From positions 77,530-141,529 of the forward strand of contig JBBQZW010000001.1 in assembly GCA_038207395.1 (NCBI GenBank): 64,000 nt of DNA, written 5' to 3'. Position numbers and translations under genes: made by a program. Positions 2,605-48,232 of the stretch are shown one piece after another. Positions within the stretch are counted from its first letter, which is position 1. Each line of letters begins with the position of its first letter. The notes beneath the pieces are model-generated. The model saw only the letters and a list, made by a program, of their open reading frames with translations. It was not told the DNA's origin and made no database searches. This DNA comes from Minisyncoccia bacterium (GTDB lineage: Bacteria > Patescibacteriota > Minisyncoccia > Phycocordibacterales > Phycocordibacteraceae).

Positions 2605-5082
2605 ATGGCATCCACTCCAACACATACAGGTAAGAAACTGCTCATCGTCGAGTCACCGGCAAAAGCTCGTACAATCCAGCAGTACCTCGGCTCAGGCTAC
2701 GAAGTGCTTGCTTCGGTGGGTCACGTGCGCGATCTCCCAAAAACGAACAAAGACGCCGTGGATATAGAAGCTGGGTTTGTACCTCGCTACATTATCTCTC
2801 CAGATAAACGAGACGTTATTGAAAAGATCCAAGCGGCTTCAAAGCGTGCCTCAGAGATATTCCTTGCGACTGACCCCGACCGCGAAGGTGAAGCTATTGC
2901 CTGGCACATTAAAGAAGCGGTGGGTCTTAAAAGTCCTAAGCGTGTGGTCTTTCACGAGATCACTAAGGCAGCAGTAGAGGAAGCCCTTGCTCACCCTCGG
3001 CTTATTGATGAAAACCTCCGGGAAGCACAGGAGGCACGCAGAGTCTTAGACCGTATTGTTGGATATGATCTTTCGGGCCTTATTTGGAAGAAAGTTCGCT
3101 ATGGTCTTTCTGCCGGGCGCGTTCAGTCCCCAGCACTCCGTATCCTTGCTGAGCGCGAACGTGAAATCAAGGCGTTTATTCCCGTTACGTATTACGTTCT
3201 TGATGCATTGTTTAAAGCAAAAGGCGGCGAGTTCCCTGCAGTGTGTAGTGTCGAACCAGATTCGGCAGAAGAAGCAGAGCGGATTGTTACCCTTGGCCGT
3301 GCCGCGAAGTGGAAAGTAGCTGACATCACCACCCGCGAAGAGGATCGTAATCCTCGCCCTCCATTCACTACCTCAACTCTTCAGCAAGCAGGATCAACCC
3401 GCCTAGGCTTTTCTCCCTCACGCACCATGCGTGCAGCGCAAAAACTGTACGAAGCCGGGCATATCACCTATATGCGTACGGACTCAGTAAATCTTTCAAA
3501 AGAAGCTATTAGTGTTCTGGGAAAAACTATTGAATCTGAATTTGGTAAAGAATATGTTGCAACGCGGGCGTACGCCACTAAGAGTAAAAATGCACAGGAA
3601 GCACATGAGGCTGTTCGCCCCACGAACCCCGGTATAAAAAAAGCTGGAGCAAATGGCGACGAGGCTGAGCTCTACCAACTCATTCGAAACCGCACCCTCT
3701 CAAGTCAGATGGCTGCGGCACGCGTTGAGCGCACAAACGTTCGTTCAGAAGCTGAAGCGGTTATTCCTGCATTTAGTACAAACGGTTCTCGCGTCATATT
3801 CCCCGGATGGCTTGCATGCGACACAAAGGCACGTGGTGAAGACGTTGAACTCCCAAAGTTGAATATTGGTGACCCCCTCACCGTACTTTCACTGGGGAGC
3901 CTCGAGAAGCAAACCGAACCCCCTAACCGGTACACCGAGGCAGGATTAATTAAAGAGCTTGAAAAGCGTGGCATTGGACGCCCGTCTACCTATGCATCCA
4001 CCATGAAAACAATCCAGGATCGTGGGTACGCAGAAAAAACCGGGCGCACACTAACCCCCACCGCTACCGGCATGGTGGTGTCAGGTTGGTTGGAGGAACA
4101 TTTTGCCGAATATATTTCTGATGCCTTTACTGCTGAGATGGAAGACGAGCTGGATGAGATTGCTCGAGGCGAGCGCGGGTACCGCGCGACCCTTGAAGAT
4201 TTCTATGGTCCTTTTCAAAAAGCCGTTCAGAGTAAAGACTCACTTCCAAAAGCCACCTCGTTAGGAGCTGTGCCAGAAGAATTTACCTGCCCCGTGTGTG
4301 GAGCACCCATGGAGTTCAAACTTGGTCGTGGAGGCATATTCATGAGCTGTACGCGTTACCCAGAATGTACCGGTGCGCGTCAGGAGGATGGTTCGGTTAT
4401 TTCTGCAGATGAACCCCTAGGCATTCATCCTGATACTGGCTTCCCTATCTTTATTCGTACAGGGCGCTTTGGTCCCTATGTAGAAATGCCACTCGAAGAT
4501 ACTCCAGCAGAAGAACCTTCTGTGCCTGAAAGCGAGACGAGCAGTAACACTGAAGCCTCAGACGTTACGCCGGTAAAAAAGGGAACAAAGAAACCTACTA
4601 AGAGCGTGGCTAAAAAGAAGGTTGCGAAGAAGGCGAAGAAACCAAAAATTGCCGCAAAGCGCGCAAGTATTCCCGCAGGCACTGATCTAGGAAGTGTGAC
4701 TCTTGCTGATGCAATCAAATATCTTTCACTTCCTCGTGAACTCGGTATACACCCTGATACTGGCATGCCTGTTGCAGCAAACACAGGGCGCTTTGGGCCA
4801 TACGTCGCGCATAACGGAGAATTCCGTTCGATCAAAAAACTTGACCCCTACACCGTTACGTTTGAGGAAGCAGTTGCGGTGCTGGCTGAACCTAAACGCC
4901 CCCCTCGAGGAGTCGACATTGTTCGAGAGATTGGTGCGCATCCAAAGACTGGAAAAATGCTAACCCTCTATAAATCGAAACAGGGACATTTCCTCAAGAA
5001 AGGCCTGCGCCGCATCTATCTGCCTGAGAGTGAAAACCCTGAAGAGCTTTCGCCACTCGTAGCAGCTGACTATTTGAAATAG
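2605..5082 (+). CDS. topA: DNA topoisomerase I
   Basis: 825 aa with a Toprim N-terminus (LLIVESPAKARTIQQYLG), a topo IA core and a C4 zinc ribbon (CPVCGAPMEFKLGRGGIFMSCTRYPEC). Three C-terminal GIHPDTG..TGRFGPYV repeats are present, with a lysine-rich H1-like tail between them. Confidence 0.9.
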   Translation: MASTPTHTGKKLLIVESPAKARTIQQYLGSGYEVLASVGHVRDLPKTNKDAVDIEAGFVPRYIISPDKRDVIEKIQAASKRASEIFLATDPDREGEAIAWHIKEAVGLKSPKRVVFHEITKAAVEEALAHPRLIDENLREAQEARRVLDRIVGYDLSGLIWKKVRYGLSAGRVQSPALRILAEREREIKAFIPVTYYVLDALFKAKGGEFPAVCSVEPDSAEEAERIVTLGRAAKWKVADITTREEDRNPRPPFTTSTLQQAGSTRLGFSPSRTMRAAQKLYEAGHITYMRTDSVNLSKEAISVLGKTIESEFGKEYVATRAYATKSKNAQEAHEAVRPTNPGIKKAGANGDEAELYQLIRNRTLSSQMAAARVERTNVRSEAEAVIPAFSTNGSRVIFPGWLACDTKARGEDVELPKLNIGDPLTVLSLGSLEKQTEPPNRYTEAGLIKELEKRGIGRPSTYASTMKTIQDRGYAEKTGRTLTPTATGMVVSGWLEEHFAEYISDAFTAEMEDELDEIARGERGYRATLEDFYGPFQKAVQSKDSLPKATSLGAVPEEFTCPVCGAPMEFKLGRGGIFMSCTRYPECTGARQEDGSVISADEPLGIHPDTGFPIFIRTGRFGPYVEMPLEDTPAEEPSVPESETSSNTEASDVTPVKKGTKKPTKSVAKKKVAKKAKKPKIAAKRASIPAGTDLGSVTLADAIKYLSLPRELGIHPDTGMPVAANTGRFGPYVAHNGEFRSIKKLDPYTVTFEEAVAVLAEPKRPPRGVDIVREIGAHPKTGKMLTLYKSKQGHFLKKGLRRIYLPESENPEELSPLVAADYLK

Positions 5083-5107
5083 CTAGATCTAGCGGTACTG
5101 TATAGAG

Positions 5108-6760
5108 ATGACGACGGCTAAGGAGATCATCGCAGTACTGAACGCACCGACTCCGGAGGATATAGCCCTCATAGAAAAGGCATACGCTTTTTCTGAAAAC
5201 GCCCACAAAGATCATAAGCGATATTCAGGTGAACCTTATTTTCTTCATCCAGCCGCAGTTGGAAAGCATCTTGCCGTTATTGGTATGGACGCAGATACCA
5301 TCGCTGCAGGCCTTTTGCACGACTCGGTTGAAGATACCGGAGTGTCTGAGGAAACTATTGAGGCTGAATTTGGTCCTGAAGTTCGGTTTTTAGTTGAAGG
5401 GGTCACCAAACTTGGAAAGCATAAGTACCAAGGCGCTGAACGTCACGCAGAAAGTCTGCGTCGTCTTTTAGTCGCCACCTCTGCTGATGTACGGGTGCTC
5501 ATCATCAAACTTTGTGACCGGTACCACAACATGACGACCCTTGAGCATGTTCCTGAACATAAGCGAAGAAGAATTGCACTAGAGACGCTTGAGATTTATG
5601 CACCACTCGCTGACCGTTTAGGAATGGGAGGGCTTAAGAAAGAACTTGAAGATCTTGCTTTTCCGGCTGTAGACGCCGACGCGTACCAGCATGCTATCGA
5701 GGTACGCAAGCTGAAAACAAAGGAAACAGATGAGGGCTTAGCGCGGGTGCAAAAAGAGTTACAGCACGCACTTGCCCGTCGCGGCATTACGAATTTCAAA
5801 ACAGATATTCGCATGAAAGGATTGTGGAGTTTGCACCAGAAACTTAAGCGTAAGGATGATGATATTACGCGCATTCATGACATTGCCGCGCTCCGGGTTG
5901 TCGTACCTGCTATCGATTATTGCTACACGGCGCTCGGCGTCATTCATTCTCTTTGGAAACCCCTTCCCGGCGAATTTAAAGATTACATTTCATTTCCAAA
6001 ACCAAACGGCTATCAATCACTTCATACAACAGTACTAACGGCAGATGCCGGAATAGTTGAGATGCAGGTTCGTACTGAAGAAATGCATCATCGGGCACAG
6101 TATGGTATTGCTTCACACACGTCGTATAAACAGTTACCGAAGGAAGAGATGAAAAGACTGGGCGATGCAGCTCAAAAACAAGCCTATGAAAAACTATCTT
6201 TCTCTTGGATGCGGGGACTGGTGCCAACCCTCCTTCATTTGCGAAAACGCGACACCGATACCGCTCAGCCCGTAGGCGCGTCAAAAAAGAAGGTAGCAAA
6301 AGTAGCTCCAGCCTGGCTTTCTGAACTCGCTGACGCACATGCACCTGTTGCAGGCAGTGAAGATTTCGTACAAGGACTTCGCCAGGATTTCTTTTCCCAT
6401 CGACTCTTTGTATTTACTCCTCAAGGAGACGTTATCGATCTTCCCGTACACTCAACGCCCATTGATTTTGCCTATGCAATTCATAGCAAGCTCGGAGATC
6501 ATATGAACGGCGCTAAAGTGAATGGCAAACTAGTATCCTTTGATACCATGCTTCGTAATGGTGACGTTGTAGAGATACTTGAAAAAGCAACTGCTCGGCC
6601 AACACGAAAGTGGCTTGACTATGCGCGTACTAGTATGGCGCGAAGACATATTAAACTTATGCTTGACCAGTCTGAACGGGGAACGATTTCTGCACGGGGA
6701 GAACTTAGACCGGTAAAGATTCGAAAGAAGCGAGCGCCGAAAGATGATAAGAAAAAGTAA
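5108..6760 (+). CDS. rel: bifunctional (p)ppGpp synthetase/hydrolase RelA/SpoT family (short form)
   Basis: 550 aa with an HD hydrolase domain (HPAAVGKHL..GLLHDSVEDT), a RelA_SpoT synthetase domain and a TGS domain (FVFTPQGDVIDLP..). No long ACT-domain tail is present. Confidence 0.85.
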   Translation: MTTAKEIIAVLNAPTPEDIALIEKAYAFSENAHKDHKRYSGEPYFLHPAAVGKHLAVIGMDADTIAAGLLHDSVEDTGVSEETIEAEFGPEVRFLVEGVTKLGKHKYQGAERHAESLRRLLVATSADVRVLIIKLCDRYHNMTTLEHVPEHKRRRIALETLEIYAPLADRLGMGGLKKELEDLAFPAVDADAYQHAIEVRKLKTKETDEGLARVQKELQHALARRGITNFKTDIRMKGLWSLHQKLKRKDDDITRIHDIAALRVVVPAIDYCYTALGVIHSLWKPLPGEFKDYISFPKPNGYQSLHTTVLTADAGIVEMQVRTEEMHHRAQYGIASHTSYKQLPKEEMKRLGDAAQKQAYEKLSFSWMRGLVPTLLHLRKRDTDTAQPVGASKKKVAKVAPAWLSELADAHAPVAGSEDFVQGLRQDFFSHRLFVFTPQGDVIDLPVHSTPIDFAYAIHSKLGDHMNGAKVNGKLVSFDTMLRNGDVVEILEKATARPTRKWLDYARTSMARRHIKLMLDQSERGTISARGELRPVKIRKKRAPKDDKKK

Positions 6761-6797: not shown

Positions 6798-7817
6798 CTA
6801 CACCGTAAAACTACTGATTGAATATAAATCAGTATCCGACTCTGCAGCTTCTACAGGAGTAGAATTTTGTATCTCATCCGTAACGGGTGTTGATGTAATC
6901 TGAGACGAATTTACTGGAGATTGTGCGCGAACTTCTTCAACGCTCGCTACTGCCTGAGCAGAAAGCTCCGCTTCCTGCTCTCGGCGCTCAGCAAGGATGG
7001 TTGCGATATGTGAAAGATCTTCGGGTGAGAAAAACTCAATCATGACGCGTCCTCCGTTAGGCCGGTTCTCAATAAGAACGCGGGTACCGAGTGTTTCCGT
7101 GAGACTTCGCTCAAGCTCCATCATTTCTGGAGTCTTGTCATGCTTACGAATCTTATCGGTCGCTATGCGGCGCGCCAACTGCTCTACAACGCGCACGGTT
7201 GTCTTCTTAAGTACAATCTCCTTAAAGAGTGTGTCTTGCTCCTCAGGACGGTCAGAGAGCATGAGGAGCGCGCGTGCGTGGCCTTCCGTAATCTCTTTGC
7301 CCACAACGGCGTTTTGAATAGCCTCAGGGAGCGCTAAGAGGCGAATTGAGTTAGAAACATACTCACGACTCTTTCCAACCTTCGCCCCAATCTCTGCATG
7401 CGAAAGTCCGAAGTTTTCAGCGAGCTGTGCGAGCGCTTTAGCACGATCAATAGAGTTCAGATCTTCACGCTGAAGGTTCTCAATAATCGCAAGCTCGAGC
7501 TTCATACGGTCAGTCTGCTCACCAGCACGAATAACGACCGGTACTTCACGTAACCCAATCAAACGTGAGGCGCGAAGGCGGCGTTCGCCGGCGATAAGCT
7601 CATATGCTGTTTGAAGTCCTCCATCCTCCTTTTCAATATCTTTACGTGTCACCACCAGCGGCATAAGGACGCCATACTGACGGATTGATTCTGCAAGGCT
7701 CTTAAGATTTTCTTCGTTAAATTCAATACGTGGCTGGTACGGGTTGGCACTAATGCGGTCAACTTCGACCCAGTACACTGAATCGTATTTTGTAGGGAGG
7801 TAGGTTTGTTCACTCAT
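6798..7817 (-). CDS. parB: ParB/Spo0J-family partition protein
   Basis: 339 aa with a ParB N-domain (LIAGERRLRASRL) and an HTH, plus a divergent Ser/Thr-rich C-terminal tail. No parA is adjacent. Confidence 0.75.
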   Translation of the reverse strand: MSEQTYLPTKYDSVYWVEVDRISANPYQPRIEFNEENLKSLAESIRQYGVLMPLVVTRKDIEKEDGGLQTAYELIAGERRLRASRLIGLREVPVVIRAGEQTDRMKLELAIIENLQREDLNSIDRAKALAQLAENFGLSHAEIGAKVGKSREYVSNSIRLLALPEAIQNAVVGKEITEGHARALLMLSDRPEEQDTLFKEIVLKKTTVRVVEQLARRIATDKIRKHDKTPEMMELERSLTETLGTRVLIENRPNGGRVMIEFFSPEDLSHIATILAERREQEAELSAQAVASVEEVRAQSPVNSSQITSTPVTDEIQNSTPVEAAESDTDLYSISSFTV

Positions 7818-7882
7818 TTCTCTATTCTAGCATCGTGCTCTTCTTTGCGTGTAGTGAAATGGTTGTGTACGATGTGCAGAAC

Positions 7883-7963
7883 GCTGAAGTGGCGGAATGG
7901 TATACGCGGAGGTCTCAAAATCCTCTGCCGCAAGGCTTGTGGGTTCGAGTCCCACCTTCAGCA
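7883..7963 (+). tRNA. tRNA-Leu (anticodon CAA)
   Basis: Acceptor GCTGAAG/CTTCAGC, D arm GCG-GAATGGTATA-CGC, anticodon loop CTCAAAA, long variable arm (TGCCGCAAGGCTTGT) and T arm GTGGG-TTCGAGT-CCCAC. CCA is not encoded. Confidence 0.7.
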
Positions 7964-7980
7964 CTGAGTAGAAGTACGTA

Positions 7981-8014
7981 GAACGCGCAGGCTGATGCCT
8001 GCGCGTTCTTTATA
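7981..8014 (+). terminator. rho-independent terminator after tRNA-Leu
   Basis: Hairpin GAACGCGCAGGC-tgat-GCCTGCGCGTTC followed by a T-run (TTTATATT). Confidence 0.6.
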
Positions 8015-8405
8015 TTCAGAAAAGACATACGAAAGACCCCTGATAAGCATCCGGACTTCGCCCGTACAGTATCTAGCACACAGGCGCATGGATCACTTTC
8101 TGTGCCGATGAGTGCCATACACGCTGCAATACTTGAAACTCTAATACAAAGCGCAACGCCGATCTGCTCCTTATACCGTTTCAGAATATGTGCTCGTGCT
8201 TAGATATCCCTATGGTCGTAGAGTTCACCCATGAGCCGTGCGCAGCAAGAGGTTTTATAATGCAATACACTCGCATGTATTACCCTTTCCGTACCATCTA
8301 TCCTGAACAAGGTAATACTAGACATTCGTGGTTCAAATAAAGTTAAAGTCCGACTGATAATTTTCTGAGCTTTCTCTGGAGAAAAACCATGCTACTATCC
8401 GCGCA

Positions 8406-9248
8406 ATGCTCAAGAAACCAAACATTATTGCCGTTATAGGTCCCACTGCATCGGGAAAATCTGCGAAGGCAGTCGCGCTTGCGAAAGAACGAAATGGGGA
8501 GGTTATCTCTGTTGATTCACGTCAAGTGTATCGAACGCTTGATATTGGCACTGAAAAGACAAGTATTGAGGAAATGCAAGGAATTCCGCATCACCTTATT
8601 GATATTCGTGATCCTGAGGAAACGTATAGTGCTGGTGACTTTGTAACTGATGCGAGTGCGTTGATTGAAAAACTCAGCAGTGAAGGTAAAACTCCGATAC
8701 TTGCCGGCGGCACTCATTTCTATTTCGATGCTCTTTTGTATGGACTTCCAGGCGAGCCGATCCATCCTGAGCTGAGAACAGAGCTTGAAGCACGTTCAGA
8801 AGAGGATTTATTTAATGAAGTTGAAATCAAAGATCCTCGCCGTGCGGCTCGCATTGACCGGCATAACAAACGCCGCCTCGTGCGTGCGCTTGAAATAATC
8901 GCAACTCACGGAATCGTTCCCGAACGTGAACGTACAGAACTTGCATATGATGTTGAATGGGTAGTGATTGATCTACCAAAAAACGAACTATGCGCACGTA
9001 TTGATGCACGCCTAGTGCAGGCAATGGAGCGCGGACTCGTTCAGGAAGTGGAACGAACGCGGACGCGCGTCGGAGACGCGCGTCTTATTGAGCTCGGTCT
9101 AGAGTACCGTGTCATTGGAGAATTTCTTCGTGGTGAGCGCTCAGAGGCGTCACTCCTGCCTACCCTTTCAAGCCGTCTCTGGCAGTATGCTCGCCAGCAA
9201 AAGAAATGGCTTCGCAGACTTCCCGTTGCAAAAAGCATAGAGCTCTAA
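8406..9248 (+). CDS. miaA: tRNA dimethylallyltransferase
   Basis: 280 aa with a P-loop (IIAVIGPTASGKS), the SVDSRQVYR..LDIGT motif and the GGTHFY motif typical of MiaA/IPTase. Confidence 0.85.
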   Translation: MLKKPNIIAVIGPTASGKSAKAVALAKERNGEVISVDSRQVYRTLDIGTEKTSIEEMQGIPHHLIDIRDPEETYSAGDFVTDASALIEKLSSEGKTPILAGGTHFYFDALLYGLPGEPIHPELRTELEARSEEDLFNEVEIKDPRRAARIDRHNKRRLVRALEIIATHGIVPERERTELAYDVEWVVIDLPKNELCARIDARLVQAMERGLVQEVERTRTRVGDARLIELGLEYRVIGEFLRGERSEASLLPTLSSRLWQYARQQKKWLRRLPVAKSIEL

Positions 9249-21690: not shown

Positions 21691-22605
21691 CTAAAATCGC
21701 GTGAGAAAATCCTTGTACTGCACTTTCTTTCCGTGTAGTACCTCAACATACAATTCCTGGAGTTGTTTCGTCGTGCCTCCAATCTTACCTTCTCCAACTA
21801 TTCGCCCATCGATCTCAATAATGGGCGTCAAAGACGCTGACGTGCCACACGCAAATACTTCGTCGGCGACATAGAGTTCAGTAAGATCAATACTTCGTTC
21901 AACGGTTTGTATACCCACGTCTTGAGCAAGCGTTAGAATAGTTGCTCGGCTAATACCTTCTAAGATGTCGTTTGCTTGGCCTGGCGTGTGTAGTACCCCA
22001 TCTCGTACGAGGAAGATGTTCGCAGCAGACAGTTCACAAACATGCCCAGCTACATCCAGAAATACGCAGTCATCATAGCCACTATCTAATGCATCCTGGC
22101 GTGCGAGTACTGAGTTTACGTACGCACCATTTACTTTTGCGCGGGAAGGGATGGAAAAATCCGGGACTCGACGCCATACACTTGTTTTCAAACGCGCCCC
22201 ATCTTTAGGTAGAATGTGTGCCGCTTCATATACAAAAATGCTTAGTTTCGTATTGAGTCCTCGTGAGCGTACTCCTGGTATTAGGTCCGTTACGTGTATC
22301 GTTACACGCACAAATACATTTTCGTTCACGCCATTTGCAGTAATTACTTCTTGCGCAGCATGGTACAAATCTTCCTCTGTTACTTTTGCATCTATACCGA
22401 TGATACGTGCAGAATTCGTTAGACGTGTAGCGTGTTCTCTAAGGCGAAATCCATACAACACATCACCGTTCTTACATACAGGGAATACGGTATACACGCT
22501 AAGACCGTATAGCACTGCTGAACTTGCAACACTTACATTCGCTTCTGAGAGCGGTACGATATTTCCGTCGAAATATGCCTTATCGTATATACGAGCCATG
22601 AGCAC
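21691..22605 (-). CDS. class IV PLP aminotransferase (branched-chain amino acid or D-amino acid aminotransferase)
   Basis: 304 aa with the BCAT/DAAT fold (..LYGLSVYTVFPV..GVRSRGLN..ELSAANIFLV..). Substrate specificity cannot be assigned from sequence alone. Its stop codon abuts the 3' end of tRNA-Leu. Confidence 0.75.
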   Translation of the reverse strand: MLMARIYDKAYFDGNIVPLSEANVSVASSAVLYGLSVYTVFPVCKNGDVLYGFRLREHATRLTNSARIIGIDAKVTEEDLYHAAQEVITANGVNENVFVRVTIHVTDLIPGVRSRGLNTKLSIFVYEAAHILPKDGARLKTSVWRRVPDFSIPSRAKVNGAYVNSVLARQDALDSGYDDCVFLDVAGHVCELSAANIFLVRDGVLHTPGQANDILEGISRATILTLAQDVGIQTVERSIDLTELYVADEVFACGTSASLTPIIEIDGRIVGEGKIGGTTKQLQELYVEVLHGKKVQYKDFLTRF

Positions 22606-36481: not shown

Positions 36482-37033
36482 ATGAAGCTCTTAGGAAGCG
36501 CGCTAAAAGAGATTGCGATCTTCCTTGTTCTGGCCGTTATCATCGTCCTCCCCATCCGTTTGTTCGTTGCACAACCATTCGTTGTTGAAGGCGAAAGCAT
36601 GCACCCTACATTTGAAAGTGGCGACTACCTCATCGTTGATGAACTTTCATATCACTTTCACGAACCTCGCCGCGGTGATGTCGTCGTATTTCGCTACCCT
36701 GGTGATCCAAAAGTCTTTTATATAAAGCGCGTTATCGGACTTCCGGGCGAAACTATTAGCATTACTGAAGGGAAAGTAACTATTACAAAAGAAGATGGTA
36801 CAAGCGTGACTCTTTCTGAATCATATGTTGTTAACGAAGACGCCACGTACACACAAAGCACACACATAGGCGCAGGTGAACTCTTTGTTATGGGAGATAA
36901 CCGTCCAAAAAGTTCTGACTCGCGCGTATGGGGACTCCTTCCTGAAAAGAATATTATTGGCCATGCCTTCGTCCGACTCTTCCCTGCGAATGAATTCGGA
37001 CTTAATCCTGGCGCAACCACCCAACCACAATGA
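36482..37033 (+). CDS. lepB: signal peptidase I
   Basis: 183 aa with an N-terminal TM, the catalytic Ser box (GESMHPTF), the Lys box (YIKRVIGLPGE) and the GDNRPKSSDSRVWG box. Confidence 0.85.
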   Translation: MKLLGSALKEIAIFLVLAVIIVLPIRLFVAQPFVVEGESMHPTFESGDYLIVDELSYHFHEPRRGDVVVFRYPGDPKVFYIKRVIGLPGETISITEGKVTITKEDGTSVTLSESYVVNEDATYTQSTHIGAGELFVMGDNRPKSSDSRVWGLLPEKNIIGHAFVRLFPANEFGLNPGATTQPQ

Positions 37034-38163
37034 TCACTTCACTTCGACCCGATGAGGTAGTAAAACGTGCCGCCGCTATAGGTAGTTACTACGGATTTAC
37101 TTCTCTTTCATCGCTCACCGTAAAAAAGACAGCATCACGTGCACCGTATCCTGAGGGAGTTAATCCTGATGCACTTGACCCGGCAGCACGTGAAGTAGCA
37201 GGATTTCTTAAGCATGTACGTGATGCGAATCTAACACCTTCCATCGCCCAACCTCTTTTTGTATGGCACACGAATGCTGCGCCAGGGCGTCCTGCTCCTA
37301 AGCAAATAATCATACAGTTCCATGCACTAGGAACTGAACGCGCCATAGCTGACGCCGTACTTATGCGTGCCGTGCGTGCATTTATGCAGGATCTCACCAA
37401 AGATGACCTGACGCTTCGTATTAACAGCATGGGTGACAAAGAGACTCGCAGTCGCTTCGCACGAGAGCTTGGTACTTTTTTCCGTAAGCACGGAGCCGCG
37501 CTTCCTGAACCCTGCGTAACCAGTGCAAAGAACGATGTATTTGAAGGAGCCGAACTCCTCGCAGCAATGGACTCAGGGAGTCTTCCAGCACCCACAGATC
37601 ACCTAAGCGAAGCTAGCCGTAAACATTTTGAGAGTGTTATCGAGTACCTTGAGGCAAGCGATACTGGGTATGAGCTTGCTCCTGAACTTCTTTCACGTGG
37701 ACCGTCATGGGCAGAGACCTGTTTTGAAATAAAGGGAGGCGATTCACTGCGCGCCTGGGGCTCACGCTATAACGAACTGTCCCGTCCATTCTTCGGTTCT
37801 GCAGTTCCAGGAGTTGGTGCAGTTATTCGTATCACCACTGACGTACGGGACACTCTTCCTGCACTGAAGCCTGCAGGAAGTCCTCGGTTTGTGTTCGTAC
37901 ATATTGGTGACGAAGCTAAACGCGAAAGTATGAAAATGGCTGACACGCTTCGTAAGGCTCGAATTTCTCTGACACAAAACATTGGTATTGAATCTCTCAC
38001 CGAACAAATGCGTCATGCAGAGACTATTAATCCTCCGTATCTTTTAATCATGGGCCGCAAAGAAGCCCTTGAACGTTCAGTTATCCTTCGTCACCGTGCA
38101 AGCTATACGGAAACCTTTATTCCGTTTGATTCACTTATTGAGCATTTGAAGAGTGTTGTATAA
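37030..38163 (+). CDS. histidyl-tRNA synthetase-like protein (divergent; class II motifs degenerate)
   Basis: 377 aa. The C-terminal ~100 aa form a class IIa anticodon-binding domain (..RFVFVHIGDEAKRESMKMADTLRKARISL..LLIMGRKEALERSVILRH..). The catalytic-core region is collinear with HisRS but motif 2 and motif 3 are degenerate (..GGDSLRAWGSRYNEL in place of GGRYD.L). The start overlaps the lepB stop (ATGA). Confidence 0.5.
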   Translation: MITSLRPDEVVKRAAAIGSYYGFTSLSSLTVKKTASRAPYPEGVNPDALDPAAREVAGFLKHVRDANLTPSIAQPLFVWHTNAAPGRPAPKQIIIQFHALGTERAIADAVLMRAVRAFMQDLTKDDLTLRINSMGDKETRSRFARELGTFFRKHGAALPEPCVTSAKNDVFEGAELLAAMDSGSLPAPTDHLSEASRKHFESVIEYLEASDTGYELAPELLSRGPSWAETCFEIKGGDSLRAWGSRYNELSRPFFGSAVPGVGAVIRITTDVRDTLPALKPAGSPRFVFVHIGDEAKRESMKMADTLRKARISLTQNIGIESLTEQMRHAETINPPYLLIMGRKEALERSVILRHRASYTETFIPFDSLIEHLKSVV

Positions 38164-42908: not shown

Positions 42909-43292
42909 ATGGGTAAAGATTTTAATGCCTGGAATACTGAGAAAAAATATCTTAACACTAAGTTACAGGGTAAATATGGTCACCCCGGTGAAATCTGGTG
43001 GTGTTCTTTAGGAATAAATATTGGAGTTGAAACTAACGGCAAACACAATTTGTTTGAACGACCTGTAATTATCCTAAAAGCATATAATACAAACAGTCTT
43101 CTTATGCTTCCGCTTACAAGCAAAGAAAAGCGTGATGCTTTTCACTACAGGGTTAGTTCCGAAATCGGTATAAGTTATGCAAAATTAACGCAGGTACGAG
43201 TTATAAGTACAAAAAGGTTATTACGAAAAGTGGGGAAAATTACTACAACTGAGTTCGAAAATTTAATCACTTGTTTCAAAAACAGCATATAA
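42909..43292 (+). CDS. PemK/MazF-family endoribonuclease toxin (solitary)
   Basis: 127 aa (GEIWWCSLGINIGVETNGKHNLFERPVIILKAYNTNSLLMLPLTSKEKRD..KLTQVRVISTKRLLRKVGKITTTEFENL), collinear with MazF/PemK (GDIW.VDF.P..G.E..G.RPA.VVS....N.....V.V.PLTS...R). The region is AT-rich, bracketed by two terminators, with no antitoxin ORF on either side. Confidence 0.65.
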   Translation: MGKDFNAWNTEKKYLNTKLQGKYGHPGEIWWCSLGINIGVETNGKHNLFERPVIILKAYNTNSLLMLPLTSKEKRDAFHYRVSSEIGISYAKLTQVRVISTKRLLRKVGKITTTEFENLITCFKNSI

Positions 43293-44361: not shown

Positions 44362-44380
44362 GAGAAGATAGACTAAATAA

Positions 44381-44412
44381 AAAAAAGCCCGCACGAGTGC
44401 GGGCTTTTTTTA
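44381..44412. terminator. bidirectional rho-independent terminator
   Basis: AAAAAAAAGCCCGCAC-gag-TGCGGGCTTTTTTT. Confidence 0.7.
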
Positions 44413-44422
44413 TTTCAGTGAC

Positions 44423-44572
44423 TTACGCAGCTGAAACTTCTTCTTCGCCTTCAGTAACAGGCATGTGCTCCATAGGAGCTGCTTCTGTTTCTGGAGTCAT
44501 TTCTGGAGTCTCTGGCATTGCCGTCGCCTCATCTCCCATCTCGTCGTGGGTCTTTACTTCTTCTGAATCCAT
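44423..44572 (-). CDS. possible small acidic protein (49 aa)
   Basis: The internal Met of ORF 44423-44674 gives the product MDSEEVKTHDEMGDEATAMPETPEMTPETEAAPMEHMPVTEGEEEVSAA. No clear RBS, so this is low confidence. Confidence 0.2.
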   Translation of the reverse strand: MDSEEVKTHDEMGDEATAMPETPEMTPETEAAPMEHMPVTEGEEEVSAA

Positions 44573-44694
44573 AGCGTAAATGGTTAGGACACAAAGGCTA
44601 AAGCCTTTGGTCTGTAGTAATGATTCAACGGGTCGAATCAAGGTAACTATAGCGCACTTAGATGGAAATAGCATGAAGTGCGTTTCAAGTATTC

Positions 44695-45942
44695 ATGAGA
44701 ATTAGATATACTTTCCTTACTATTGATATGGACACGCAAAAACGCCCTTCAGCCAAATGCGTGTATTGTGGCGATACTCCGGTAAATCACACCTTTCATT
44801 TTATAGACTCAAGTCTTTCACTACTGTTAGGAGGAAATCGCACCCCTCGTGAGAAACCACTTCCACGCCTTTTTCGGTTGGAAAACTCTGAAATTATTCG
44901 ATGGATCATACGTAGCCTTCTTGCCGCACTAGTACTAGTAAAGATAGTTACATTCAGTACTGATAAGGAACTGGCGCGCACTACTCGCACAAAGAGCATT
45001 TGGGCAGAGGCACTTCGTCGTGGAATCCCCATCCAGGAAGTTCTTATTTTTGGTGCACGACGTGATCAGTTACGTGCGTGGCTTCCGACAAAGAAGGGTG
45101 GGAAGAAATATCGTTGGCATTATTTTGATAGTATCCCCACTCGCCCTTGGGTCCCGCAGTACGGACTTTCGTGGGTTGATGATAAGCAGAGCTTAAAGAA
45201 GGTCTTTTCTGGCCACAACCTTCCGGTAGCACGGGGCGGCTCTGTCTGGACTGCAGCAGGTGCTCGAAACATACATGAAAAAGTAGGCGTGCCTGTAATT
45301 ACGAAGCCTCGCGAAGGCTCTCGAGGCCGACACACAACCGTTGCCATCAGTAGCCCAGATGAGCTTACTGAGGCATTCAAACGAGCTCAACAACTTTGTC
45401 TATATGTACTGGTTGAAGAATATGTTGAGGGTCGGATATATCGAGCAACCTGTGTTGACTCGAAGGTAATCGGCATTATGGAACTCGTTCGCCCCAGTAC
45501 ACTCGCTGACGGTGTTAAGACCATTACAGAGCTACGCGAGCACCATAACGCGCACGGTAAGGCATATGCGCACTTAACCGATGTTGAGGATTCAACGCTT
45601 TTCCGCGATGCTATTAGTCACCAAGGATACACTCCTGAAAGTATTCCTCCTGCAGGCACCCGTATTCTTCTAGCTGAATTAGAGGAGCGGACAAATGGAG
45701 GGTACTTTGTTGACTGTACTGATGATATCCCTAAAGAAACCATACAGACGATTGAACGCGCTGCAGACCTTTGCGGTATTGATGTGGTTGGATTCGATAT
45801 TATTTCAAAAGATCTCGCAGATCCTGATGAACGGTTCGTCTTTCTTGAAGCAAACTCTTTGCCGTATATTGAGATTCATGACATGCCGTACGCAGGTACG
45901 GTTCGAAATGTCTCTTCGGCAGTATTTGACCTATGGTTTTAA
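44695..45942 (+). CDS. ATP-grasp ligase (cyanophycin-synthetase-N-domain-like / D-Asp-ligase-like), membrane-anchored
   Basis: 415 aa. The N-terminal third has a TM (IIRWIIRSLLAALVLVKIVTF). The ATP-grasp core is ..PVITKPREGSRGRHTTV..VLVEEYVEGRIYRATCV..NGGYFVDCTDDIPKETIQTIERAADLCGIDVVGFDIISKDL..FVFLEANSLPYIEIH.. The true start may be an internal Met. Confidence 0.6.
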   Translation: MRIRYTFLTIDMDTQKRPSAKCVYCGDTPVNHTFHFIDSSLSLLLGGNRTPREKPLPRLFRLENSEIIRWIIRSLLAALVLVKIVTFSTDKELARTTRTKSIWAEALRRGIPIQEVLIFGARRDQLRAWLPTKKGGKKYRWHYFDSIPTRPWVPQYGLSWVDDKQSLKKVFSGHNLPVARGGSVWTAAGARNIHEKVGVPVITKPREGSRGRHTTVAISSPDELTEAFKRAQQLCLYVLVEEYVEGRIYRATCVDSKVIGIMELVRPSTLADGVKTITELREHHNAHGKAYAHLTDVEDSTLFRDAISHQGYTPESIPPAGTRILLAELEERTNGGYFVDCTDDIPKETIQTIERAADLCGIDVVGFDIISKDLADPDERFVFLEANSLPYIEIHDMPYAGTVRNVSSAVFDLWF

Positions 45943-46661
45943 AAATCCCAACAGCACCCAAACATATTGGAATCATTGGTGGTATGGGTCCATTCGCAGG
46001 ACAGCGCTTTATTCAGCACATTCTTGAATACGCGCGCGACACCTACGGCGCGCGCGTAGACGAAGACTACCCTCAAATGAGTATTGAAAACATCGCACTT
46101 CCTGCACTCACGGCTCAAGGCGTTACTGACGGTATGCAGTATGTTCCACTACTTAGTTCTGTTCTAAAAAGGATTGAGACGTACGGCGCACAGATGATAG
46201 CGATTCCCTGCAATACTATTCACTCTATCCACGCTGAACTCCAAAAATCAGTTGCAGTTCCTCTATTTAATATTATCGAAGAAACAGTAAGGCGAGCAGT
46301 ATCTCAAGACTATAAACGTACATATATACTCGGCACTGGTTCAACTATTTCTGACGGTCTATATCACTCAGCGCTTCGTGCTCAGAGTATTGAGCCACTG
46401 CAGCCTACGGGTGAACATCAAGAACAGGTGGGGGCACTCATTACTATTCTTGAGCAAGGGTGCAGTACTCCCGAAGCATGCGAACTCTATGACTTACTTG
46501 TTAAAGAGGCTATGGCTCAAGGCGCTGATTCGATCATTCTTGGCTGTACCGAACTTTCGTATCTTTGCAATGAGCCCACGCCGGGCATCAGTGTCATAGA
46601 CAGTTCCCGCATTCTCGCCGAAGCAGTCGTGAACGCAGCGTACGGTGCATCGTTGTCCTAG
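45933..46661 (+). CDS. aspartate/glutamate racemase family protein (aspartate-racemase-like)
   Basis: 242 aa with HIGIIGGMGPFAGQRF (the GGMGP motif of aspartate racemases), IPCNTIHSI and ILGCTELS. Overlaps the ATP-grasp stop by 10 nt, suggesting translational coupling. Confidence 0.7.
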   Translation: MVLKIPTAPKHIGIIGGMGPFAGQRFIQHILEYARDTYGARVDEDYPQMSIENIALPALTAQGVTDGMQYVPLLSSVLKRIETYGAQMIAIPCNTIHSIHAELQKSVAVPLFNIIEETVRRAVSQDYKRTYILGTGSTISDGLYHSALRAQSIEPLQPTGEHQEQVGALITILEQGCSTPEACELYDLLVKEAMAQGADSIILGCTELSYLCNEPTPGISVIDSSRILAEAVVNAAYGASLS

Positions 46662-46672
46662 CCTATTATTTT

Positions 46673-47578
46673 CTAGGATAACTGTAGCGCAAATAGCAGC
46701 ATTAAGAGTCCGAGTATCGTCAAAAAGAAGCGTGTCGTTCGTGGAAGACCCGTAAGAATTGTTGCGACTAGGCGAAATTCAAGTCGAATACTTCCATAGG
46801 GATACAGGCCTGTGTAGAAAGGAGTACGTGTTTCGCGCCACGGGTCAGTCGTGGTGAGTAATCGCAGCGAGTCAGCTTTGAAGAGTTTCTTTAACAGCGT
46901 GCTTTTTGGGTCCTCTACCCACTCCTGTCCACTCCAAAATAAAAGTGGCTGGAAGTGAGTCTTGTATGACATCCATTTGCCATACGTAACACCGAGGTAT
47001 AGATACGCTATTTCCTTACGTTTCAATTCCTCAAGAATAGCGAGGTACACATATAGTCCGAGGTATGAACTTTCAAACTTCTTTGCGTATGCGTGATACC
47101 AGGTATGGACAAAGCCCTCACCATGAACCTCAAGCACATATGCGGCTGGCACATCATTGATACAAAACTCGCGTATATGCGTAACAAAACCTGAGTCAAG
47201 GATTGCTCGGAGGCGTGCTTCAGGCATCGCATCTTTTCCAAATCTGAATGCAAAGTAGCTGAGGAAAAACGATATAAAATCGTTTGTTATAGAAAAAGTC
47301 TCAATGTCATGAAGTTTCGAGGTAATGGGGCCGAGCGCTGACACTCTCCTTCGGACGCGTGCATGATAGTGCCGTTCGTGAAAGTCAGGGACGCGTACCC
47401 GCGTCCCTCGCGCCATATATACCATTCGATCTGGTTGCTCCTTTGCGCCTACGAAAGGCAGAAATCCTTTCTCGTATACATCATCTAGTGAATCAACTTC
47501 TTCCAATTCGCCATACACCGAATACCCAAACGAATAGAGTGCAGGGTTAGCTGAGAGTTCAGAATAAAAGATTCGCAT
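46673..47578 (-). CDS. hypothetical protein with a C-terminal TM
   Basis: 301 aa and aromatic-rich (..HGEGFVHTWYHAYAKKFESSYLGLYVYLAILEEL..), with a C-terminal hydrophobic helix. No family assigned. Confidence 0.45.
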   Translation of the reverse strand: MRIFYSELSANPALYSFGYSVYGELEEVDSLDDVYEKGFLPFVGAKEQPDRMVYMARGTRVRVPDFHERHYHARVRRRVSALGPITSKLHDIETFSITNDFISFFLSYFAFRFGKDAMPEARLRAILDSGFVTHIREFCINDVPAAYVLEVHGEGFVHTWYHAYAKKFESSYLGLYVYLAILEELKRKEIAYLYLGVTYGKWMSYKTHFQPLLFWSGQEWVEDPKSTLLKKLFKADSLRLLTTTDPWRETRTPFYTGLYPYGSIRLEFRLVATILTGLPRTTRFFLTILGLLMLLFALQLS

Positions 47579-47593
47579 GATACGAGTAGTGTA

Positions 47594-48136
47594 TCAAAAA
47601 GTATATACGTACAACTTCCTACCGAGTTTTTTAGGGTCACCGGTTGAGAGCGCGACCTCCCTATCTTCTTTTCGCTTACTAAATACAAAATCAAGCGAGT
47701 AGACCGAAGCTCCTGGCTTTAACTCTTTCTCTACCTTCGCAAGTAAGGCATCCATGACCTGCGGATACAAATAGGTGTACACATGCGTTGCATCCGCAAG
47801 ACTATGAGTTTCAAACATGCCATGACGTATCTGGATGGATGTTCCGCGTGTACGGTATCGTGCAATAAAATATGGGATGAATTGAAACTCAATTCCAACG
47901 AATTTCGCCTGAGGATTCTGTTTTGCAATTTCTATGAGCATTCGTGCGTCTCCGCATCCAAGATCGTAGAAGACGCTTCCTTTCGGAAGCGTCCCGATAA
48001 GCGAGACAATCTCATGCATGACTTCAGTACGCGTTGGAACAAAGGGAGCACGTGAGGGTAGAAGCACCATCATGCGTATGAAAAGAACGCAGTAGGTTAT
48101 GACTACCAAGTCGAGGAGCAGAATAAGCCAAGTCAT
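47594..48136 (-). CDS. class I SAM-dependent methyltransferase, membrane-anchored
   Basis: Start trimmed to the Met of MTWLILLLDLVVITYCVLF because the longer ORF overlaps tRNA-Ser. Motif I is FYDLGCGDARMLIEIA. Confidence 0.6.
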   Translation of the reverse strand: MTWLILLLDLVVITYCVLFIRMMVLLPSRAPFVPTRTEVMHEIVSLIGTLPKGSVFYDLGCGDARMLIEIAKQNPQAKFVGIEFQFIPYFIARYRTRGTSIQIRHGMFETHSLADATHVYTYLYPQVMDALLAKVEKELKPGASVYSLDFVFSKRKEDREVALSTGDPKKLGRKLYVYTF

Positions 48137-48144
48137 ATTTTGTG

Positions 48145-48232
48145 TGGCGGAGGCGGAGAGATTTGAACTCTCGATGCCTTGCGACATGCCGGTTTTCGAA
48201 ACCGGTGGAATAAACCACTATCCGACGCCTCC
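48145..48232 (-). tRNA. tRNA-Ser (anticodon CGA)
   Basis: Acceptor GGAGGCG/CGCCTCC, anticodon arm CCGGT-TTCGAAA-ACCGG, long variable arm and T arm GAGAG-TTCAAAT-CTCTC. CCA is encoded. Confidence 0.75.

Follow-up and report, generated by a model that had tools for sequence, protein, structure and literature searches.

A lineage-restricted gene pair of Patescibacteria couples an ATP-grasp ligase to a predicted aminoacyl-tRNA-dependent transferase and may build a peptide branch on cell-wall precursors

In a stretch of 64,000 nucleotides from the genome of a Minisyncoccia bacterium (contig JBBQZW010000001.1, positions 77,530 to 141,529; hereafter, the window), a gene for an ATP-grasp ligase (44695..45942, plus strand, an open reading frame (ORF) of 415 amino acids (aa) in the ORF listing) overlaps a gene for a two-cysteine, pyridoxal phosphate (PLP)-independent amino-acid racemase of the Asp/Glu family (45933..46661, plus strand, 242 aa). 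A third gene, for a protein of 301 aa that we identify as a predicted ATE1/Bpt-like, aminoacyl-transfer RNA (tRNA)-dependent transferase, converges on this pair from the opposite strand (46673..47578, minus strand). The ligase and the transferase constitute a conserved, lineage-restricted module of Patescibacteria (Paceibacteria-type genomes), to which the racemase is an optional addition. A literature search revealed no published description of this module, and there is no name on record for the window's own proteins. We propose, at a probability of roughly 40%, that the module serves to construct a peptide branch on precursors of the cell wall.

The association between the ligase and the transferase is constant. 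A convergent transferase gene follows every ligase of at least 39% identity for which the surroundings are readable, that is, in 15 distinct loci (the window, L001, L002, L032, L081, L082, L084 and L103-L110), and of the 11 loci with directly abutting genes, 9 show an overlap of the two 3' ends. The pair is flanked by ftsZ and trxR in most of the loci, by holB and ATP synthase genes in L109, and by recG and a two-component system in L110; in L032, it is preceded by a different stretch that lacks any ftsZ or trxR match. The transferase is thus the invariant partner of the ligase, retained across at least three different flanking contexts. Ligase and transferase matches occur on contigs of equal size in at least 19 cases, some of these contigs being only 2-5 kilobases (kb) long. 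In a neighbor-joining tree of 96 sequences rooted with TeCphA1, the 16 partnered ligases form a single clade with no unpartnered member. In L107, a ligase paralogue from the wider family (7200-8444, 30% identical) is encoded divergently beside the ligase/transferase pair.

This wider ligase family, with relatives in 332 species genomes, shows no comparable organization. Of the 80 ligase loci that we fetched (L001-L080), 77, at 30-39% identity, have neither a racemase nor a transferase nearby. No constant neighbor was detected among the ligases of 33-37% identity, where the neighbors vary and include RecG, PilM, ComF and, in 8 loci, MurC; apart from these, only a tandem paralogue upstream of the ligase recurs, in 18 of the 80 loci. 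The possibility that the racemase is a general neighbor of the ligase family was rejected as well: tblastn detected it in 2 of the 80 genome loci, one of these matches being weak and 5 kb away, and jackhmmer on called ORFs added none.

Within the module, the racemase is present in 6 of the 15 loci, in two arrangements. In one, seen in the window and in L103-L105, the racemase gene is placed between those of the ligase and the transferase; in the other, seen in L032 and L082, it stands head-to-head with the transferase gene. The original prediction, which centered on the ligase and the racemase as a translationally coupled pair for D-amino-acid ligation, was accurate with respect to the overlap: the racemase gene begins with an ATG at 45933-45935 and the ligase gene ends with a TAA at 45940-45942, so that the two share 10 nucleotides (nt). 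All the motifs quoted for the two proteins are real: the ligase contains PVITKPREGSRGRHTTV, EEYVEGRIYR, GGYFVDCTD and FVFLEANSLPYIEIH, and the racemase contains GGMGP and CNTIH. The nearest relatives keep the coupling: the order ligase, racemase and convergent transferase recurs with a 10-nt overlap of the first two genes in L103, a 19-nt overlap in L104 and a 29-nt gap in L105. The choice of the racemase as the conserved partner of the ligase did not hold: compared with the 6 of 15 subfamily loci, the racemase is found in 1 of 77 wider-family loci (Fisher p = 4e-5, a value that overstates independence because the loci are phylogenetically related). The two distinct arrangements of the racemase are a stronger argument for a functional tie than this p-value.

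The obligatory partner is instead the 301-aa protein, previously labeled hypothetical, which could be placed by fold search only, given that a sequence search against solved structures retrieved nothing. In Pfam, the ATE_C domain (PF04377) passed marginally (26.9 bits versus a cut-off of 25), the ATE_N domain was not detected, and a FemAB match was absent, with only Acetyltransf_6 appearing at 17.4 bits, below the cut-off of 22; the Bpt equivalog models (PRK01305) reached at most 30.9 bits versus cut-offs of 170-267. When the AlphaFold (AF2) model of the protein, with a predicted local distance difference test (pLDDT) score of 83, was used as the Foldseek query, the matches were aminoacyl-tRNA-dependent transferases only. 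The best of these was human ATE1 (8tzv, 5.6e-11), with yeast ATE1 also matched and Sbb17/Sba18 second-best; further matches included LF-transferase, the catalytic domain of MprF, FemX and other Fem proteins (1ne9 at 7.6e-6, 4ii9 and 7z5y, all around 1e-5). Judging by the structural model, the protein is an ATE1/Bpt-like aminoacyl-tRNA-dependent transferase anchored in the membrane at its C-terminus. The anchor had been noticed before, together with the convergent orientation, and the family bears it out: an uncharged C-terminal membrane helix is clear in all 20 long-form transferases (hydropathy scores 2.0-3.0), whereas the four short-form members examined have none. A profile search against 1.84 billion representatives yielded 348 relatives at E<=1e-10; among the 150 transferase representatives listed, about 8 have the long form with the membrane helix, and the rest are soluble proteins of 230-265 aa.

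Two further features of the transferase family deserve mention. The N-terminus (residues 1-24, MRIFYSEL..YSFGYSVYGE) is among the most conserved parts of both the long and the short forms but was modeled at pLDDT <50 despite this conservation; it may be an interaction or substrate-binding motif. In the 809-aa protein P0199, an ATE-like domain (residues 1-231) is fused to a PPDK_N domain, which has the ATP-grasp fold, and to a phosphoenolpyruvate (PEP)-utiliser mobile domain; this is a second, independent pairing of the transferase family with an ATP-grasp-type enzyme.

A link to the cell wall comes from short, soluble paralogues that share 33-36% identity with the transferase. The gene for such a paralogue, of 230-250 aa, immediately follows that of a MurC/Mpl-like Mur ligase, abutting or overlapping it, in 7 of 12 loci (L086, L087, L090-L093 and L098; for example, 4584-6014 and 5971-6699 in L093). 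The Mur ligase is a 470-aa protein that scores 243 bits with the MurC model and 187 bits with the Mpl model, both below the equivalog cut-offs, and in 3 of these 7 loci, a GlmU/MurU-like sugar-1-phosphate nucleotidyltransferase follows. The Mur ligase together with the short ATE-like paralogue looks like a second murein-precursor module, and the placement of the paralogues behind a MurC/Mpl-like ligase points to peptidoglycan precursors. Soluble FemX is described as acting on uridine diphosphate (UDP)-N-acetylmuramic acid (MurNAc)-pentapeptide, and FemX/MurM of S. aureus and S. pneumoniae as acting on lipid II. By analogy, the split between the long and the short transferases appears to parallel that between soluble FemX and the lipid II-directed Fem/MurM proteins. 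The module transferase thus resembles the Fem transferases (FemX of Weissella, FemXAB and MurM) in the fold, in the split between soluble and membrane forms, and in the tie of its paralogues to Mur ligases; it differs from them in that by sequence it belongs to the ATE_C/Bpt branch rather than to FemAB, and in that it consists of a single catalytic domain of about 230 residues and a membrane helix.

Given that the transferase matches ATE1 best by fold and ATE_C best in Pfam, and that RimK-family models match the ligase, albeit weakly (33.8 bits), one could envisage that the module modifies protein termini, with the transferase aminoacylating N-termini in the manner of N-degron pathways and the ATP-grasp enzyme adding C-terminal residues like RimK. 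We consider this improbable. The low Bpt scores and the missing ATE_N domain set the transferase apart from the protein-modifying enzymes, as does its tail anchor in the membrane; in the loci with listed genes, neither clpS nor clpA lies beside the module, the neighbors of the module transferase being ligases rather than Clp or N-degron components; the paralogues are coupled to MurC/Mpl-like genes; and the racemase would have no place in such a pathway. Still less probable is a scheme in which the transferase aminoacylates a membrane lipid, as MprF does, after which the ATP-grasp enzyme acylates the lipid-bound amino acid. The membrane anchor would suit such a role, and MprF/L-PG synthase catalytic domains are among the fold matches (4v36, 6lv0 and 5vrv), but these rank below ATE1, LF-transferase and FemX, no flippase domain is present, and the neighborhood of the paralogues points to murein precursors instead.

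The second constant component of the module, the ligase, is homologous to the G domain of cyanophycin synthetase but stands alone, and it belongs to the CphA-G/GshF clade. Cyanophycin-synthetase-type ATP-grasp enzymes were one of the options named in the original prediction, and the CphA G domain indeed emerged as the best match. Residues 157-415 of the ligase align with positions 207-471 of the 862-position TIGR02068 model at 176.6 bits, well below the cut-off of 850, and the same residues retrieve PDB 7wac in a sequence search against solved structures (E 2.7e-32). The weaker matches are the GshF ATP-grasp module (96.8 bits) and N-acetylglutaminylglutamine synthetase (86.4 bits). The profile check against DdlA- and PurK-type families gave a clear answer, with the D-Ala-D-Ala ligase, RimK and PurK models all scoring far lower than the CphA model. 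The AlphaFold (AF2) model built from 82 homologues (pLDDT 93.8; predicted template modeling score 0.90) led to the same assignment: the best Foldseek match was TeCphA1 (7wae, 1.9e-24 over 333 columns at 27% identity), and the order of the matches was TeCphA1, SuCphA1 (7lg5; E ~1e-24), then CphA2 and GshF. The likeness to CphA1 and CphA2 spans the ATP-grasp fold with its G-omega loop. Unlike CphA1, the module ligase stands alone, at about 400 aa, and carries an N-terminal segment of its own.

This N-terminal segment contains a motif, C22-x-x-C25...H32 (ligase residues 22-32), that is nearly invariant throughout the ligase family, has no counterpart in CphA and may be a metal-binding knuckle. 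The deposited homologue P0001 has 404 aa, and the homologues begin about 10 residues before the CxxC; for this reason, translation of the window ligase probably starts at Met12 (44728) rather than at 44695. The ligase had also been described as membrane-anchored, which seems doubtful: the hydrophobic or amphipathic helix concerned (residues 66-81) bears 2-3 charged residues, and the maximal Kyte-Doolittle score across the family has a median of 1.48 and reaches 1.6 in only 32 of 82 members.

The catalytic and the Asp- and polymer-binding residues of TeCphA1 have been defined experimentally (PMC9427784), and we mapped them onto 94 family members. The residues that bind ATP and Mg, along with the arginine that contacts the acyl phosphate, are kept: K220, K261, R309, E450 and N452 of TeCphA1 correspond to K164, K204, R250, E385 and N387 of the ligase, all invariant in the 94 members. 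By these residues, the ligase appears to be a competent carboxylate-amine ligase. The three residues of CphA1 that bind the incoming aspartate are a different matter. R323 is replaced by L264 (L or F), N394 by E331 (an invariant E in the clade) and R458 by E393 (E or D throughout the clade); in addition, the P-loop residue His267 is replaced by Arg (R210), and the position equivalent to E215 is variable. The residues typical of the partnered ligase clade are concentrated at positions 330-346, in the G-omega loop; in CphA1, the incoming amino acid is held by this loop. By this comparison, the ligase seems to lack the mode of aspartate binding used by CphA1, and the glutamates E331 and E393 in place of N394 and R458 hint, as a lead only, at a substrate other than an acidic amino acid.

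Although the CphA1/CphA2 G domain is the closest relative of the ligase by both sequence and structure, synthesis of a cyanophycin-like poly-Asp polymer is extremely unlikely, and we reject it on the combined grounds of domain content, residues and chemistry. The ligase has no M domain, CphA N domain or Mur_ligase Pfam match and ends with the G domain (residue 415 corresponds to residue 480 of TeCphA1); it remains far from the TIGR02068 cut-off; and the residues that bind Asp and the Arg side chains of the polymer (E215, H267, R323, N394 and R458) are lost. Furthermore, the tRNA-dependent transferase could not form the beta-Asp-to-Arg isopeptide bond made by the M domain because, as the chemistry implies, it would deliver an activated carboxyl to an amine.

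The GshF and N-acetylglutaminylglutamine synthetase matches of the ligase, along with the position of Sbb17/Sba18, which are aminoacyl-tRNA-dependent peptide synthases, as the second-best fold matches of the transferase, bring to mind a small peptide made in the cytoplasm, for example, a compatible solute or a low-molecular-weight thiol akin to glutathione, for which the transferase would make a dipeptide and the ATP-grasp enzyme would extend its C-terminus. The location of trxR directly upstream of the module in most loci, including its overlap with the ligase gene in L106, is compatible with this scheme. In the window, however, trxR is parted from the module by an antisense gene and by a strong, bidirectional intrinsic terminator (44380..44411) with a 14-base-pair stem between A and T runs, and trxR is absent from L109, L110 and L032. 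A membrane anchor kept in all the long-form transferases and the tie of the paralogues to a Mur ligase also speak against a small soluble product, so that, on balance, this alternative is unlikely.

The racemase clearly belongs to the aspartate-racemase-type family rather than to MurI, as had been anticipated from its motifs. It matches PF01177 (E 5e-35), scores above the cut-off of TIGR00035 (asp_race; 133.2 bits versus 93.1) and falls far below that of the MurI model TIGR00067 (37.7 bits versus 146.65). Its best match in the PDB is the aspartate racemase of P. horikoshii, PhAspR (1jfl, E 1.3e-27), with which it shares about 32% identity, the GGMGP and CNT.H motifs, and both catalytic cysteines, Cys93 (CNTIH) and Cys205 (GCTELS) being invariant in the alignment with PhAspR. 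The resemblance breaks down at one position. The PDRTA motif of PhAspR is PALTA in the window racemase, with Arg48 replaced by Leu59; all six racemases linked to the module have L or F at this position, and the arginine is kept in 1jfl and in the Salmonella protein 3s7z. Arg48 of PhAspR was reportedly proposed by Ohtaki and colleagues in 2008 to recognise the carboxylates of the substrate. Family membership itself leaves considerable latitude: the superfamily includes broad-spectrum enzymes that prefer Lys, Trp or Asn (PMC12838360), and the superfamily and the TIGR00035 family also hold cysteate racemases. The window racemase falls below the cut-off for the cysteate racemase CuyB (NF052483; 148 bits versus 190), and a CuyA-type gene was not found among the genes next to the module. 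The residue evidence leans against aspartate specificity of the racemase.

These observations bear directly on the scheme originally put forward, in which a pair of the Aslfm/RacD type produces D-Asp or D-Glu by racemization and ligates it to a cell-wall or surface polymer. Enterococcus faecium provides a precedent, with an ATP-grasp D-Asp ligase and a racemase that build a peptidoglycan cross-bridge (PMC13631041), and the translational coupling of the ligase and racemase, the TIGR00035 match, the relationship to the P. horikoshii enzyme and the ability of CphA G domains to ligate Asp all agree with it. The similarity to the E. faecium and Lactococcus systems extends to the genetic coupling of an ATP-grasp ligase to a PLP-independent racemase of the Asp/Glu superfamily and to a plausible role in peptidoglycan side chains. 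Nevertheless, the scheme is improbable for D-Asp and D-Glu. All three aspartate-holding residues of CphA1 are changed in the ligase and the Arg48 equivalent is missing from all six module racemases, so that the active sites, as far as residue comparison can tell, argue against aspartate as bound by CphA1 and PhAspR; the breadth of the racemase superfamily makes the family match a poor guide to the substrate; and no model named for D-aspartate ligase matched the ligase in Pfam or NCBIfam at E<=0.01, the presence of such a model in these databases being unconfirmed. The module ligase belongs to the CphA-G/GshF clade, its racemase is confined to 6 of the 15 loci, and the Aslfm system lacks the tRNA-dependent transferase that is the constant partner here. 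Of the original prediction of a D-amino-acid ligation pair, then, the coupling, the families and a plausible cell-wall role stand, and the D-Asp specificity and the choice of partner do not.

A class IV aminotransferase encoded elsewhere in the window (21691-22605) had been suggested to belong to the same D-amino-acid economy. By model scores, this gene is the branched-chain aminotransferase IlvE, passing both the NF005146 model (281.1 versus 279) and a second IlvE model (253.4 versus 245.55); with 119.4 bits against the TIGR01121 cut-off of 277.45, its identity as a D-amino-acid transaminase was rejected, and as IlvE, it lends no support to a D-amino-acid economy.

ATP-grasp ligases of the CphA-G/GshF clade activate a carboxylate by phosphorylation and couple it to an amine, and transferases of the ATE/Bpt/Fem fold take an aminoacyl group from tRNA and pass it to an amine. 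In the mechanism we favor, the ligase and the transferase would share one acceptor at the cytoplasmic side of the membrane, most likely a peptidoglycan precursor, either lipid II or UDP-MurNAc-peptide, on which they would jointly build a short side chain or branch. Like FemX and MurM, the transferase would use aminoacyl-tRNA to attach an L-amino acid to an amine, and the ligase would use ATP to join a free amino acid, which may be a D-amino acid where the racemase is present; the role of the ligase would then be similar to that of Aslfm in function, not in ancestry, and the cross-bridge of E. faecium is a precedent here too. A more specific variant, tentative and in our estimate possible rather than likely, is a membrane-associated, ribosome-independent two-enzyme peptide builder, with the optional racemase supplying a non-acidic D-amino acid, that creates a new peptidoglycan-precursor branch.

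Several points weigh against the proposed construction of a branch on cell-wall precursors. The evidence is entirely genomic, and the link to the cell wall derives from the neighborhood of the paralogues rather than from that of the module itself, next to which no Mur, Fem or penicillin-binding protein gene was found. Nine of the 15 module loci have no racemase nearby, which means that a D-amino acid need not be provided in cis. The transferase is most closely related to ATE1 and Bpt, which modify protein N-termini rather than cell-wall precursors, and the ligase to CphA, GshF and Ngg, which extend a C-terminal alpha-carboxylate of a peptide, unlike Aslfm, which joins the beta-carboxylate of D-Asp to the Lys epsilon-amine of UDP-MurNAc-pentapeptide. 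Finally, the loci are not independent samples because most come from related genomes.

Other genes around the module are less regularly associated with it. The gene that precedes the transferase gene by 15 nt, in the same orientation (47594..48187, minus strand, 197 aa), encodes a class I S-adenosylmethionine-dependent methyltransferase, identified by Pfam and NCBIfam matches, with an N-terminal membrane helix (hydropathy score 2.48). A homologue is nearby in L002, L103 and L105, with endonuclease V intervening before the transferase gene in the latter two, and is absent from L107-L110; the methyltransferase is a possible accessory gene outside the core of the module. Its product weakly resembles an archaeal protein-lysine methyltransferase model (51 bits versus a cut-off of 200). 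Between trxR and the ligase, on the opposite strand, lies a small, very acidic ORF (44423-44572, minus strand; MDSEEVKTHDEMGDE...EGEEEVSAA), of 49 aa when counted from Met35 of ORF 44423-44674, and L103, L104, L105 and L108 have a comparable small acidic ORF at this site. A MazF/PemK-family toxin gene (42909-43292, plus strand) is located between ftsZ and trxR. Further upstream, a HisRS-like protein (37030-38163, plus strand) scores 91 bits versus the hisS cut-off of 287 and may be a divergent synthetase or a HisZ-like paralogue. A PADLOC search returned no match for the three core proteins, and a reading of the module as a defense system was rejected on that basis. A promoter scan of the locus was uninformative.

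Patescibacteria have minimal genomes and largely uncharted envelopes, and most of them are uncultured. It seems unlikely that a conserved pair of peptide-bond-forming enzymes, one driven by ATP and the other by aminoacyl-tRNA, together with an optional racemase, is retained without a purpose. As read here, the module is a lineage-restricted variant of a known logic for building side chains, drawn from families not previously tied to that role. It also illustrates that family names such as 'aspartate racemase' and 'cyanophycin synthetase-like' do not equate with substrate specificity. If the module does tailor peptidoglycan, this would reveal non-canonical wall chemistry in the Patescibacteria radiation, extend the substrate range of the ATE/Bpt clade beyond proteins and provide a function for the large family of stand-alone CphA-G-like ligases. 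Under the more specific two-enzyme variant outlined above, the transferase would be the first member of the ATE clade with a demonstrated action on the cell wall instead of protein N-termini, and the ligase the first stand-alone cyanophycin-G-type enzyme with a defined non-cyanophycin role.

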